A stretch of 13,414 nucleotides of DNA from Dubosiella newyorkensis (GCF_001945605.1 NZ_MPKA01000101.1:1-13414), one strand, 5' to 3'; positions 6,814 through 12,866 are shown, counted from the first letter of the stretch. Program-made: numbers and translations. Notes: generated from the sequence alone by a model not told the origin.

Positions 6814-7920
6814 ATGAATTGGACCATTGTAGATTATGCGCAAAATGTATTGCAAACCTTTGATCAACTTCCTTTTAATCAAGTCGATTCTTTGATTTTA
6901 TCGTGCATGGCTTATGTAAGAATGCCCTCAAGCTCTCTGCCGGCCTTAGAAGGCTGGGATGGCGTTCCTTTTAAAGAGGTATTGCGCGCGGAAGACTTCT
7001 CCTCGATGTTTCATACCGTCTATTCGGCGCCCCACTCGAAAGATCTTTTATGCGTGATGTGTGCGAGTCCACGATATCGCGATATTTTGATCAAAGGCTA
7101 TACCCATCAAAACGACATGAAAAGCTCGATGCAGTTTTCCGCCATCACCTTTCAACTCAATAAAAACATGGCTTATGTCGCCTATCGAGGAACCGACGCG
7201 ACCGTGATCGGCTGGAAAGAAGACTTCAATATGGCCTTTCAATATCCGATCGCAAGCCAAGAAGAATCCGCCCGCTACTTGCAAGAAGCCGCTTCGTACG
7301 TTTCAGGACAGCTCTATGTAGGCGGCCATTCCAAAGGCGGAAATTTAGCCGTTTACGCCAGCATGCATGTTCCATCCTCGATCCAAGAACGCATCGTTCA
7401 GATCGACTCTTTAGATGGTCCTGGATTTCCACAAGCGGTCCTTGAATCTTCAAGCTTTAAACATATCCAAGCCAAAGTTCATAAGACGCTCCCTCAATCT
7501 TCCTTGATCGGCATGCTTCTTGAACAACAGGAAGACTTTAAAATCGTAAAAAGCTTTCGCTTTAGCGTTTGGCAGCACGATCCTTATTCGTGGGAAGTGG
7601 AAGGATATGATTTTGCGACGATCTCTCACTTGACCCCAGGAGCCAAATATATGAATCGAACGATCAACGCGTGGCTCAACGAAATCACACCCGAAGAAAG
7701 AGAACGATTTATCTTAGCGCTCAGCAAGATCCTAGCCAGCGACAAAGCGATCACTTCCAGAGAATTTAGAAACCAGATCCCTAAAAATCTGCCCGCTTTC
7801 TTTCAAGCCGCTTCCGACCTAGACGAGGACACGAAGCACTTCTTAAAGAATACATTGAAAGAAATGGCCACATTGAGCATCAAAAATTTACATAATCATC
7901 CAAAAAAAGAAGGCGCTTGA
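6814..7920 (+). CDS. DUF2974 / Mbeg1-like alpha/beta hydrolase (lipase class 3-like), 368 aa
   Basis: The N-terminus MNWTIVDY...FNQVDSLILSCMAY, then AYVAYRGTDATVIGWKEDF and the nucleophile elbow GGHSKGGNLA, are as I recall for the DUF2974 family. No SD is present, and TATTTT (6802-6807) lies 6 nt before the ATG. Confidence 0.8.
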   Translation: MNWTIVDYAQNVLQTFDQLPFNQVDSLILSCMAYVRMPSSSLPALEGWDGVPFKEVLRAEDFSSMFHTVYSAPHSKDLLCVMCASPRYRDILIKGYTHQNDMKSSMQFSAITFQLNKNMAYVAYRGTDATVIGWKEDFNMAFQYPIASQEESARYLQEAASYVSGQLYVGGHSKGGNLAVYASMHVPSSIQERIVQIDSLDGPGFPQAVLESSSFKHIQAKVHKTLPQSSLIGMLLEQQEDFKIVKSFRFSVWQHDPYSWEVEGYDFATISHLTPGAKYMNRTINAWLNEITPEERERFILALSKILASDKAITSREFRNQIPKNLPAFFQAASDLDEDTKHFLKNTLKEMATLSIKNLHNHPKKEGA

Positions 7921-7921
7921 T
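7752..7921 (+). repeat. Left copy of the 170-bp direct repeat (3' end of the hydrolase gene)
   Basis: Identical to 12697-12866 except G7848 vs A12793. Similarity stops abruptly at 7921/7922, in the middle of what is a terminator hairpin in the right copy. Confidence 0.95.
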
Positions 7922-8019
7922 CTAATTTGGAAGATAAGATCAAAAAGGTCTGATTCCAATCAAACTAGACCACCGTTATGACAAACCTTATTGCAGTGAG
8001 TTTTATGCAACAAGAGTCG

Positions 8020-8058
8020 AAAAAAAAGAAAGCTCCAGACCACATATAGCCTGAAGCT
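8020..8058 (-). terminator. Rho-independent terminator of the licT-bglP-bglH operon
   Basis: On the minus-strand RNA, AGCTTCAGG...TCTGGAGCT is followed by TTCTTTTTTTT. The plus-strand C.A mismatches become G.U wobbles on the minus strand, so the element is functional in the minus orientation. Confidence 0.75.
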
Positions 8059-8104
8059 TAACTAAACAAGGATATCATGCATTAAGTTAGATGATAATCT
8101 AACT
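8020..8104 (-). repeat. Left copy of an ~85-bp repeated intergenic element (R2) containing the bgl operon terminator
   Basis: An ungapped hand alignment to 12608-12692 gives 66/85 identical positions. The mismatches cluster in the hairpin loop. Confidence 0.8.
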
Positions 8105-8109
8105 TAATG
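8080..8109. repeat. Perfect 13-bp inverted repeat (hairpin) between the bglH stop and its terminator
   Basis: CATTAAGTTAGAT (8080-8092), GATA, ATCTAACTTAATG (8097-8109). The corresponding part of the right-hand R2 copy cannot form it. Confidence 0.85.
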
Positions 8110-8170
8110 ACATTGGTTTATGCATTGCCTTGTAAAATTGCCGGATTATTTTCACTTATCCTTATTTCAA

Positions 8171-9640
8171 TTAATATTCTTTTCCATTTGTACGAATCAC
8201 GTTTGCGTAATAATCGAAAGAATCTTTTTTATAACGTTTAAGTGTCCCTTTCCCTTCATCATCAAGGTCAACATAAATTACCCCATATCGTTTTGCCATT
8301 TCCCCTGTAGAAGCAGAAACTAGATCTACAATTCCCCACGGTGTGTACCCTATCAGATTCACTCCGTCTTGGATCGCATCATCCATTGCTTTGATATGAC
8401 ATTTAAAATACTCGATACGGTACGGGTCATGCACTTGCTCATCTTCAAGTACATCATAGGCGCCGAGTCCATTTTCGACAATCATGATTGGAAGCGAATA
8501 CCGATCTTCGATTTCATTGAGAATATATCTTAATCCGTCGGCATCAACGCCCCAGCCCCAGTCAGAATAATGAATATATGGATTTTTTGCACCCATTGAT
8601 AAATTGCCGGCACCATCTTTCGCTACATCTTTATGTGTTGTAACACATGTTGTATTATAGTAGGAAAAAGTAAAAACATCTACTTTTCCTTCTTTTAGCA
8701 ATTGCGCATCTTTATTGAAGAACTCCGGATCCAATCCATATTGTGCCCAAATCTTTTTAGAACAACTTGGGTACTTTCCACGAGATTGCACGTCTCCGCA
8801 GTACCAGAAATAGTTCTGCATCTTTTCCTGAGCAGCCAGAATATCTTTCGGATCACAAGTCAGTGGATAGTTTACCAGACCGGCAATCATACATCCCATC
8901 ACGAACTCTGGATAGGTCTCATGAGCATATTTTACAGTTTTCGCACTAGCAACAAATTTATTATGTAGCTGAATATATGAAAGTCTTGTTTTTTCTTCCG
9001 GATAATTCGGAACAAATGCTGATAACATCAGCATTGAATTGATCTCGTTAAATGTCAACCAGTATTTAACAAGATCACAATACTCATCCATCACAGTCTT
9101 TGCAAATTTGAAATACAGATCAATAGTTTTTGGATCTTCCCAGCCAATTTTAGTAGCGATATAGGCTGGATCGTCATAGTGAGAAATCGTGACAAGCGGT
9201 TCGATCCCATTTCTCTTCAATTCTTCAAATACGTTTCTATAAAATGCAAGCCCTTCTTCATTAGGAGCTTCTTCTATACCTAATGGATAGATTCGCGACC
9301 ACGATATCGACATTCTGAACATATTCATACCCATTTCTTTAAATAGCGCAATATCTTCTTTATATCGATGATAGAAGTCGACCCCCATATGATTTGGATA
9401 GTGTTCATCTTCAAACACTGCGAAAGTAACATCCATCGGAATGTCGGAAGAAACAATTGACGTTCTTACTTTTTTTGGATCTCCATTTTTATCAAAATAC
9501 GTCAAATATCTATTTGTTTGTGCTGATCCGCCAGTCGTAAAATCTGTTAATGCAGGTCCGCGACCATCCAGATTCCATCCGCCCTCATATTGATTAGCTG
9601 CTGTTGCGCCTCCCCAGTAAAAATCTTTTGGAAAATTCAT
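8171..9640 (-). CDS. bglH: GH1 6-phospho-beta-glucosidase (489 aa)
   Basis: The N-terminal [20 protein letters not shown], the TFNEIN acid/base region and the IVENGLG nucleophile are GH1 signatures. The gene is translationally coupled (ATGA overlap at 9637-9640) to a PTS beta-glucoside transporter. The symbol is by analogy only. Confidence 0.9.
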
Positions 9641-12467: not shown

Positions 12468-12481
12468 TGTAACCGCTACCA
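12468..12481 (-). promoter_or_regulatory. Candidate catabolite-responsive element (cre) in the licT leader
   Basis: The minus-strand TGGTAGCGGTTACA matches TGWAANCGNTNWCA at 12 of 14 positions. It lies just downstream of the predicted licT start site. Confidence 0.4.
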
Positions 12482-12495
12482 CACAGCATGCGGAT

Positions 12496-12524
12496 ATTTT
12501 AGCATTTGTAAAATATTTTGATAA
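12496..12524 (-). promoter_or_regulatory. Promoter of the licT-bglP-bglH operon
   Basis: On the minus strand: TTATCA (12524-12519), a 17-nt spacer, then TGcTAAAAT (hexamer 12501-12496). Confidence 0.55.
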
Positions 12525-12607
12525 TTACCTTTATTGCTCTAAACATTGCGAATATTGTTATATAATCATCATTCTTTTCCTCTTCTTTTCCGATATCGTC
12601 ATCCGCC

Positions 12608-12692
12608 GAAAAAAAGACAGCTCCAGGACTCATTCGACCTAGAGCTTAACTAAGCAAGGATATCAGGCATTAAACTAGGTAACAATCTCACT
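12608..12692 (-). repeat. Right copy of the R2 element, directly abutting the right 170-bp repeat
   Basis: 66/85 identity to 8020-8104 in the same orientation. Homology ends at 12692, and the gene-fragment repeat begins at 12693-12697. Confidence 0.8.
12609..12646 (-). terminator. R2-borne minus-strand terminator that insulates the licT promoter from upstream transcription
   Basis: On the minus-strand RNA, AGCTCTAGG-N10-CCTGGAGCT (9 bp including one G.U) is followed by GTCTTTTTTTC. Confidence 0.6.
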
Positions 12693-12696
12693 CGAA

Positions 12697-12865
12697 CACT
12701 TCCAGAGAATTTAGAAACCAGATCCCTAAAAATCTGCCCGCTTTCTTTCAAGCCGCTTCCGACCTAGACGAGGACACGAAGCACTTCTTAAAAAATACAT
12801 TGAAAGAAATGGCCACATTGAGCATCAAAAATTTACATAATCATCCAAAAAAAGAAGGCGCTTGA
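12697..12865 (+). pseudogene. Orphan 3' fragment (last 56 codons) of the DUF2974 hydrolase gene
   Basis: It duplicates 7752-7920. An in-frame TAA lies just upstream, and there is no start or SD. The only in-frame ATG would give 18 aa. Confidence 0.9.
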
Positions 12866-12866
12866 T
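12697..12866 (+). repeat. Right copy of the 170-bp direct repeat
   Basis: 169/170 identity to 7752-7921. It continues into the intact terminator hairpin that the left copy lacks. Confidence 0.95.

Follow-up and report, generated by a model that had tools for sequence, protein, structure and literature searches.

How does a complete beta-glucoside utilization operon come to lie between two nearly identical copies of the end of a hydrolase gene, and does it still move? This question is raised by a stretch of 13,414 nucleotides (nt) from Dubosiella newyorkensis (GCF_001945605.1 NZ_MPKA01000101.1:1-13414; hereafter the window, meaning the whole stretch), a member of the Erysipelotrichaceae from the mouse gut according to NCBI protein names. 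Here, a licT-bglP-bglH module separates a DUF2974 hydrolase gene from the convergent gene p96, and a 170-bp end of the hydrolase gene is found on both sides of the module. An initial annotation, made from the sequence itself, had taken this arrangement for a recently acquired cassette that could still be gained and lost. We lean, if only slightly, towards a different history, namely a one-off illegitimate insertion of a foreign bgl operon with a 170-bp target duplication, which is now a stable chromosomal feature.

The repeat finder returned a single outstanding direct repeat of 174 nt with 99% identity and a spacing of 4945 (7748-7921 versus 12693-12866). Pairwise alignment showed two mismatches across the 174 nt, T7751/A12696 at the far left edge and G7848/A12793. 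The core of 7752-7921 versus 12697-12866, as delimited in the initial annotation, aligns at 169/170, with G7848/A12793 as its only difference; G7848 is private to the window strain, and the cores are identical (170/170) in four other contigs (L001, L002, L085 and L091). The last 56 codons and the stop codon of the hydrolase gene fall within the left copy, which leaves the gene intact (the identical protein is found in 134 collection blocks by exact-protein look-up) and stops inside the former terminator loop, at 7921/7922. The hairpin is completed by the right copy alone, which provides the left arm and the A-tract of the native terminator (GAAGGCG-N8-CGCCTTC at 12854-12875, followed by T5); its stem extends to 12-14 bp, with U-tracts on both strands. 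Folding of the right-copy terminator gave -15.7 kcal/mol on the plus strand (z -3.3) and -20.9 kcal/mol on the minus strand (z -5.3), and the junction at the 3' end of the left copy (7895-7960) had no significant structure (z -0.7). The right copy together with the hairpin is the native gene-terminator junction. In these descriptive points, covering repeat, gene end and hairpin, the initial annotation was correct throughout, as judged by repeat finder, alignment, list of open reading frames (ORFs), Pfam and folding.

A comparison with relatives showed that the module has been inserted into the ancestral gene order, as had been proposed. In Firmicutes bacterium M10-2 (L004), the genes p180, IspD, p157 and the hydrolase gene (9989-11077) are followed by a convergent p96 homologue (11184-11477, 106 nt past the hydrolase gene; 46% identity, E 5e-20) and a p229 homologue. 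The hydrolase gene and the p96 homologue are separated by a bidirectional hairpin terminator, and bgl genes are absent. In a closer relative (L098, L101), whose hydrolase is 68% identical, bgl is likewise absent from the site. Because L004 and L098/L101 lack bgl here, the hydrolase end belongs natively with the hairpin/p96 side, which had also been suspected and agrees with the folding of the right copy. The species representatives of GTDB omit D. newyorkensis, and the best hydrolase match among them is 54% identical; therefore, they provide no empty site of a close species at the DNA level.

Next, we looked at where the operon has its closest relatives. The nearest copy outside the species belongs to another species of the Dubosiella clade (L095, L096, L106) and shares 86.9% DNA identity over window positions 12557-8160, with protein identities to L095 of 94.6% for BglP, 91.0% for BglH and 86.7% for LicT. 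In contrast, eight syntenic genes representing the genome background show 68-74% DNA identity to L095, and PurD shows 74% protein identity. The location differs as well: in L095 the neighbours of the operon are a PocR-domain gene and, across from it, a block of polysaccharide deacetylase, CdAMP_rec and purD. This slot (578-5095 in L095, 6572-8076 in L104) holds the bgl operon in L095 versus HAD-hydrolase and GNAT genes in D. newyorkensis (L104, L105). Since the similarity of the operon is far above the background and the two species carry it at different sites, the comparison indicates that the bgl operon is horizontally transferred, in either direction or from a third-party donor, which supports the acquisition from outside that had been suggested. 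The PocR/deacetylase intergenic slot is thus another variable site. At both ends, the insert carries private flanks without L095 homology, 238 nt (7922-8159) and 135 nt (12558-12692) in length, which presumably came with the donor DNA. No long flanking repeat was found around the operon copies in L095 or in L097, an operon with a 76% BglP; therefore, the duplication is specific to the D. newyorkensis event and not a property of the operon.

Besides the original transfer, sequence of the second species also appears within the operon. In a sliding comparison, window positions 10939-10539 in bglP differ from L095 at 3/400 sites, whereas 10-20 differences per 100 sites are found elsewhere, and the L095-type operon is otherwise about 13% diverged from the window. 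Similarly, L084 and L094 carry a bglH patch of about 500 nt (around 9240-8700) with about 3 differences to L095 and about 65 to the window, and shorter patches nested in the same gene occur in L089, L090 and L087. These mosaics argue that L095-type DNA is repeatedly entering D. newyorkensis and recombining at the bgl operon, which makes a DNA-uptake route plausible for the original acquisition. They represent direct evidence that homologous exchange continues between gut species living together, here at a locus for carbohydrate use, and bear on the movement of diet-related traits in the mouse gut microbiome.

The insert itself was searched for traces of mobility. The only domain-bearing ORFs in 7922-12692 are GH1, EIIBCA of the phosphotransferase system (PTS) and CAT-PRD, with no transposase or integrase (ORF list, Pfam), and the repeat finder detected no terminal inverted repeats between the start of the insert (7922) and its end (12692). 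This confirms the initial observation that all three hallmarks are missing from the insert. Every insert base is explained by the three genes and their untranslated regions (UTRs), and neither the cassette nor its two private flanks matched any plasmid or phage relative.

A second direct repeat, which was absent from the initial annotation, connects the two ends of the insert. It spans 84 nt at 79% identity (8021-8104 versus 12609-12692; repeat finder), and both copies are kept in all strains. One copy is the terminator of the bglH 3' UTR, which contains a perfect 13-bp hairpin at 8080-8109 as well as, at 8030-8059, an intrinsic terminator with its U-tract (terminator scan), and folds at -33.4 kcal/mol (z -5.9). 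The other copy, a truncated homologue, lies upstream of the licT promoter and directly abuts the right 170-bp copy: it ends within the right arm of the corresponding hairpin, truncated exactly where the right 170-bp copy starts. The pair suggests that the donor may have had a gene with a paralogous 3' UTR just upstream, perhaps a second bgl operon. A dispersed repeat family was considered and rejected, as no further copies occur in the approximately 70 kb of D. newyorkensis sequence examined. Likewise, we rejected the upstream copy as a leader with antiterminator target and terminator: the GATTGTTAC match is not in the paralogue (8021-8104), which forms a perfect 13-bp hairpin, and the copy lies upstream of the conserved promoter.

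Is the insertion recent, as the near-perfect identity of the repeat copies had been taken to imply? Our strain sample comprises consensus assemblies, mostly from laboratory mice. Fourteen contigs span both junctions and agree in all four junctions and in their order; they derive from NCBI genome records and metagenome-assembled genomes (MAGs), ENA metagenome assemblies and one JGI contig, and some possibly represent the same strain. Among the sequences compared, the window is 100% identical to contig JBGNFS010000004.1 of GCA_041448535.1 (L003), and the Logan contig L102 covers the left-side junctions only. The filled gene order was found in all contigs read for the hydrolase (21), p96 (25) and BglH (22), with one short contig (L093, discussed below) as the sole exception, and also in two further single-contig BglP variants. 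The exact p96 protein occurs in 865 collection blocks, with licT as its neighbour in every contig read. Neither the spacing of an empty site nor a circle or tandem junction was seen in the two-junction contigs (0/14) or in any other locus examined. An empty-site pattern (unique hydrolase sequence, 148-153 nt, hairpin flank), validated on the window with a control pattern, had 0 matches in the JGI metagenomes. A degenerate pattern for both junction types returned a single contig of the species there (L094), which is filled; because it is the only one, this negative is weak.

The strains are 97-100% identical to the window, with an overall difference of up to 2.8% and patches of 4-5%. Strain-specific single-nucleotide polymorphisms (SNPs) are present in each repeat copy. 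Within one genome, the left and right copies differ by 0 (the four contigs named above), 1, 3 or 6 mismatches. The right copy shows a 3-bp deletion in L084, L087 and L094, and its decay in some strains includes a C>T change in the loop. At the same time, alleles are shared between the copies: the C158/C163 haplotype (alignment columns) occurs in the left copies of L090, L084 and L087 and in the right copies of L086, L084 and L087, and the alternative T/T haplotype is also present at both copy positions. Such a distribution would need at least one sequence transfer between copies, or else recurrent double mutation, and the shared alleles appear to indicate gene conversion. As the copies exchange sequence, their near-identity does not date the insertion. 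The conclusion of a recent event was thus not borne out, with the site filled in every sampled strain, the right copy decayed in some and alleles exchanged between copies. The initial annotation had named a shared arrangement in all relatives, with diverged repeats and no empty-site allele, as the mark of an old event; our sample comes near to this, as all strains have the same arrangement, some have diverged repeats and no empty-site allele was found. Altogether, the arrangement is close to an old, fixed rearrangement, and the reading as a recent, still mobile cassette is not supported.

The history that we slightly favour, and that would combine these observations, is the following. An ancestor of the present D. 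newyorkensis strains would have received 4.77 kb of foreign DNA from another bacterium of the Dubosiella clade, consisting of the complete licT-bglP-bglH operon with 238 and 135 nt of donor flank. This piece would have been joined in a single, recombinase-independent illegitimate event, with one joint at 7921|7922, in the loop of the bidirectional terminator common to the convergent hydrolase and p96 genes, and the other at 12692|12693, 170-174 nt upstream within the hydrolase gene. Because the joints would lie 170-174 nt apart, the interval between them would be copied on both sides, either by a two-joint illegitimate integration across sister strands or by a replication template switch that moves to the foreign DNA and returns 170 nt further back. 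The right copy would then be an untranslated relic that still completes the p96 terminator. Low species diversity and mutual sequence exchange by gene conversion would be the reason why the copies remain similar, and the module would today be an ordinary chromosomal operon, not a mobile element. Both breakpoints are located within hairpins, 7921|7922 in the terminator loop and 12692|12693 in the right arm of a hairpin whose complete 13-bp counterpart stands at 8080-8109. At the right joint, the partners share CGA followed by a T/A mismatch, a possible microhomology; at the left joint, TGAT is common to the partners only if the L093 context is ancestral. We infer the joining mechanism and the single-step nature of the event from its product.

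Several points weigh against this history. To our knowledge, a target duplication of 170 bp is not well documented for bacterial illegitimate integration. No donor context of the two flanks (7922-8159 and 12558-12692) was found, and any microhomology at the left joint is therefore conjectural. The history may also have had two steps: the loop would first have been cleanly interrupted, and the terminator then restored by a duplication. With approximately 25 contigs, an empty-site allele below about 10% frequency, or rare excision within a population, would escape detection. Finally, L093 carries an IS66-family end at 7917|7918, 4 nt from the boundary between repeat and insert, which would be an unlikely coincidence if IS66 were uninvolved.

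Among the alternatives, a cassette driven in and out by RecA deserves consideration first, although we regard it as unlikely. Here, a circle carrying one 170-bp copy would enter the hydrolase 3' end by a Campbell-type crossover and pop out again. The topology is exactly that of Campbell integration, with direct repeats equal to the homology and the native junction on the right. A near-identical stretch of 170 bp repeated 4.9 kb apart is a valid RecA substrate, and the species is clearly recombinogenic. However, neither an empty site nor a circle junction appeared in the 14 two-junction contigs, about 45 contigs with the flanking genes or the one JGI contig, and the origin of a circle bearing the hydrolase end is left unexplained. 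Moreover, a single Campbell crossover cannot place the same C158/C163 SNPs in both copies. It would also follow that beta-glucoside use is repeatedly gained and lost in the population, an expectation that we consider just as unlikely; the apparent losses of function that we found consist of an insertion-element hit and gene-splitting frameshifts, and none arose by deletion between the repeats.

A gene 3' end may also be duplicated by an element that targets it with a recombinase. In this scenario, an integrative element with a site-specific recombinase would have targeted the hydrolase 3' end, brought a replacement end within its attachment site and later lost its integrase and transfer genes, leaving a relic similar to a cis-mobilizable element (CIME), that is, an element without integration and transfer genes but with attL and attR (PMC5704250). 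Such a relic would fit the duplicated gene 3' end, given that the gene is intact to one side and that its displaced native end and terminator lie to the other, as is seen for elements integrated at 3' ends. We nevertheless consider this origin rather improbable. There is no remnant of a recombinase or of transfer genes, and the insert is one operon with its UTRs. No integrase was found next to the hydrolase gene in the D. newyorkensis strains, L004 or L098, a reading that leaves 80 distant loci without a systematic survey. The identity block of usual attachment sites is much shorter than 170 nt of perfect identity. In addition, the right copy begins on its left side where the hairpin resembling the bglH 3' UTR is truncated, which looks like a random breakpoint more than the edge of an attachment site. 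Elsewhere the operon occurs without flanking repeats, and no empty site was seen.

A further variant of the circle idea regards the duplicated gene end as a portable, recombinase-free attachment site, through which the 4.9-kb circle re-enters any D. newyorkensis chromosome by RecA alone. If this were true, the operon would be mobile without needing any mobility genes, and the allele sharing between copies would be the footprint of repeated excision and re-integration or of transfer between strains, not of simple gene conversion; we consider it very unlikely.

The contig L093 raises the question of whether an insertion sequence delivered the operon. This contig of 4743 bp (GCA_948493575.1) is present in four samples and contains the window sequence 7918-12383 with 99.9% identity. 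At one of its ends, the IS66-family element of the species meets TGATCTAATTTGG (window 7918) with its right end (...CCCGCTTAC). At the other (positions 1-140), the terminus of a second mobile element meets the window sequence at 12383, inside the licT 5' end. The last 28 nt or so of this second element occur at 99-100% identity in more than 400 Enterococcus and Lactococcus plasmids and are multi-copy in Enterococcus plasmids, and in E. faecium plasmids a 74% full-length match to the L093 terminus is located some 600 nt away from a tyrosine integrase/excisionase pair. Because the licT start codon, promoter and upstream flank are absent and both ends are mobile-element termini, L093 seems to derive from the window arrangement by two hits and is probably inactive. 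For the same reasons, an ancestral or donor context was rejected as the likelier reading of this contig.

IS66-assisted delivery would require that the cassette arrived beside IS66, for example through recombination between IS66 copies or as a segment bounded by them, and that the insertion sequence was then lost via the TGAT microhomology, leaving 7921|7922. In its favour, the right end of IS66 in L093 lies at most 4 nt from the boundary between repeat and insert, and the element is active in the genome; one copy ends at window position 139, with an 8-bp duplication (GATTTTTA) in L003. However, IS66 duplications measure 8 bp (L003), not 170 bp, L093 appears derived, and the other 14 contigs have no insertion sequence at this position. 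We therefore see only a slim chance for such a delivery. The IS66 end in L093 could be a plain insertion with the 8-bp duplication TGATCTAA, its position then being an unexplained coincidence.

Two further explanations can be dismissed briefly. An assembly chimera or a collapsed repeat has a negligible probability: the exact 170-bp repeat exceeds most assembly k-mers and 199/295 collection blocks carry bglH only on 2-5 kb contigs, but an artefact is excluded, because 14 contigs from several sources span both junctions with copy-specific strain SNPs. A transposon or insertion sequence with target-site duplication was rejected, given the missing transposase and terminal inverted repeats and a duplication of 170-174 bp compared with 2-15 bp; the remark that 170 bp is unlike a transposase duplication thus holds, the resident IS66 producing 8 bp. 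The collection blocks in which bglH is found only on 2-5 kb contigs, a size class from which L093 and L102 were inspected, would fit short-read assemblies that break off at the 170-bp repeats or at insertion sequences beside them.

The features of the insert and its surroundings are summarized in Table 1.

Table 1. Coordinates of the bgl insert, the duplicated hydrolase gene end and the neighbouring genes in the window.
Feature	Position	Strand	Remarks
DUF2974 / Mbeg1-like hydrolase gene, 368 aa	6814-7920	+	Pfam PF11187, E 6.5e-80
Left copy of 170-bp repeat	7752-7921 (from 7748 with one edge mismatch)	+	Translated as hydrolase C-terminus
End of left copy	7921		1 nt past hydrolase stop codon, inside former terminator loop
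Insert flank distal to bglH	7922-8170	-	Homology to L095 ends at 8160
bglH, GH1 6-phospho-beta-glucosidase, 489 aa	8171-9640	-	Pfam PF00232, E 1.7e-117
bglP, PTS EIIBCA beta-glucoside transporter, 606 aa	9637-11457	-	Pfam EIIB/EIIC/EIIA
licT, BglG/SacY-family antiterminator, 299 aa	11531-12430	-	PF03123 (CAT RNA-binding) and two PRD (PF00874)
licT promoter and leader	12431-12557	-	Homology to L095 begins at 12557
Upstream flank of insert	12558-12692	-	No counterpart in L095; 12609-12692 terminator-like hairpin and U-tract
Right copy of 170-bp repeat	12697-12866 (from 12693 with edge mismatch)	+	Untranslated pseudo-3'-end of hydrolase gene
Bidirectional intrinsic terminator	12849-12880		Ancestrally common to hydrolase (+) and p96 (-); stop codon copy in loop
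p96, 96-aa protein convergent with hydrolase	12881-13171	-	Ancestral right-hand neighbour

Regarding the operon itself, NCBI lists BglP as 'glucose PTS transporter subunit IIA [Dubosiella newyorkensis]'. The promoter scan predicted a licT promoter from 12524 to 12496, with a -35 element TTATCA and a TG-extended -10 element TAAAAT. It is followed by a box resembling a catabolite-responsive element (cre) at 12468-12481 (TGTAACCGCTACCA), which is called on the cre consensus and is also conserved in L095. No exact match was found to the consensus of the antiterminator RNA target. A look-alike of this target (GGATGGTAACATTAAGTTGGCCAAACC) is present at 11486-11512, between licT and bglP, with no obvious terminator downstream. 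LicT has a 19-aa N-terminal extension (12374-12430), which is conserved in L095 and absent from the L097 operon. The Rfam scan returned tRNAs only, after a weak IsrM match (13.9 bits versus a threshold of 376 bits) had been discarded. For p96, a longer 109-aa reading of the ORF had no record in the exact-protein look-up, and the called gene encodes 96 aa.

Some gene calls of the operon are split in a way consistent with frameshifts, for example bglH in L103 (D. newyorkensis, 3746-5195) and bglP in L106 (the L095-type species, 6649-8462), and a neighbouring AraC regulator and a second GH1 gene are variably split in L086-L090 around 7874-8727. These calls may reflect real decay of sugar-use genes or MAG assembly errors.

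Outside the insert, the window shows further variable positions. It starts inside an IS66-family element, the left end of which is at 139; L003 (349-3326) contains a full copy and a tandem partial copy flanked by the 8-bp duplication GATTTTTA. A different scar is seen in L001, L002 and L091, where two tandem copies of an 18-22-nt insertion sequence terminus replace window 146-208. Seven tRNA genes (Phe, Met, Ser, Met, Met, Pro and Arg) at 391-1058 on the minus strand adjoin the IS66 copy. At 1489-2883, ispD is followed by an ORF of 158 aa with weak IspD similarity (24.5 bits, below threshold), and the pair is conserved in L004 and L098. A second variable spot beside the hydrolase gene extends over 5278-6813, between a P-type ATPase gene and the hydrolase gene: the stretch is low in GC (approximately 29-37%), contains small unannotated ORFs and is absent from L098, L101 and L004, and L084 and L087 have other genes there, including an ORF of 410-433 aa.

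The one-off illegitimate insertion towards which we lean would provide a clean natural example of a whole catabolic operon joined to a bacterial chromosome without mobile-element machinery, with both breakpoints resolved to the base and an ancestral site that can be reconstructed from a relative. As a more general lesson, near-identity of flanking repeats is an unreliable clock, given that the copies swap alleles and the insertion is present in every sampled strain.

How does the locus compare with known systems? In gene content and order, it is like licT-bglPH of Bacillus subtilis, with a CAT-PRD antiterminator, an EIIBCA permease and a GH1 phospho-beta-glucosidase. Unlike that operon, it lies between two 170-bp copies of the target gene end, has licT with its 19-aa N-terminal extension as the first gene of the unit, and contains no recognized canonical pair of antiterminator target and terminator. 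It also resembles a sugar-operon genomic islet, with its own promoter and cre-like box, different loci in related species and a similarity above background. With Campbell-type integration, it shares the topology of repeat, insert and repeat, the repeat being equal to the homology, but it lacks a replicon or vector remnant, a known source of the circle and any reversal products among the contigs read. With CIMEs and other elements at gene 3' ends, it has in common the direct repeats of the 3' end, the intact gene on one side and the absence of integration and transfer genes; in contrast to them, neither remains of a recombinase nor a related autonomous element were found, excision polymorphism was not seen, the identity extends over 170 nt, and the repeats are only candidate attachment sites.

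A further parallel is microhomology-mediated template switching, or illegitimate integration of foreign DNA during its uptake, for which homology-facilitated and double illegitimate recombination have been reported in Acinetobacter baylyi (de Vries & Wackernagel 2002 and Hulter & Wackernagel 2008, as cited in PMC12359135 and PMC8116780). As in those cases, the insert requires no recombinase or mobile-element signatures, its joints are arbitrary, with a possible microhomology of at most 3-4 nt and breakpoints in hairpins, and foreign DNA recombines at the operon; the difference is that the mechanism is read here from the product. We regard the locus as a newly found and well-resolved instance of a type of event already known, which leaves the current understanding unchanged and is of modest interest for the unusual length of its target duplication, for concerted evolution between its two copies and for the mosaicism between species.

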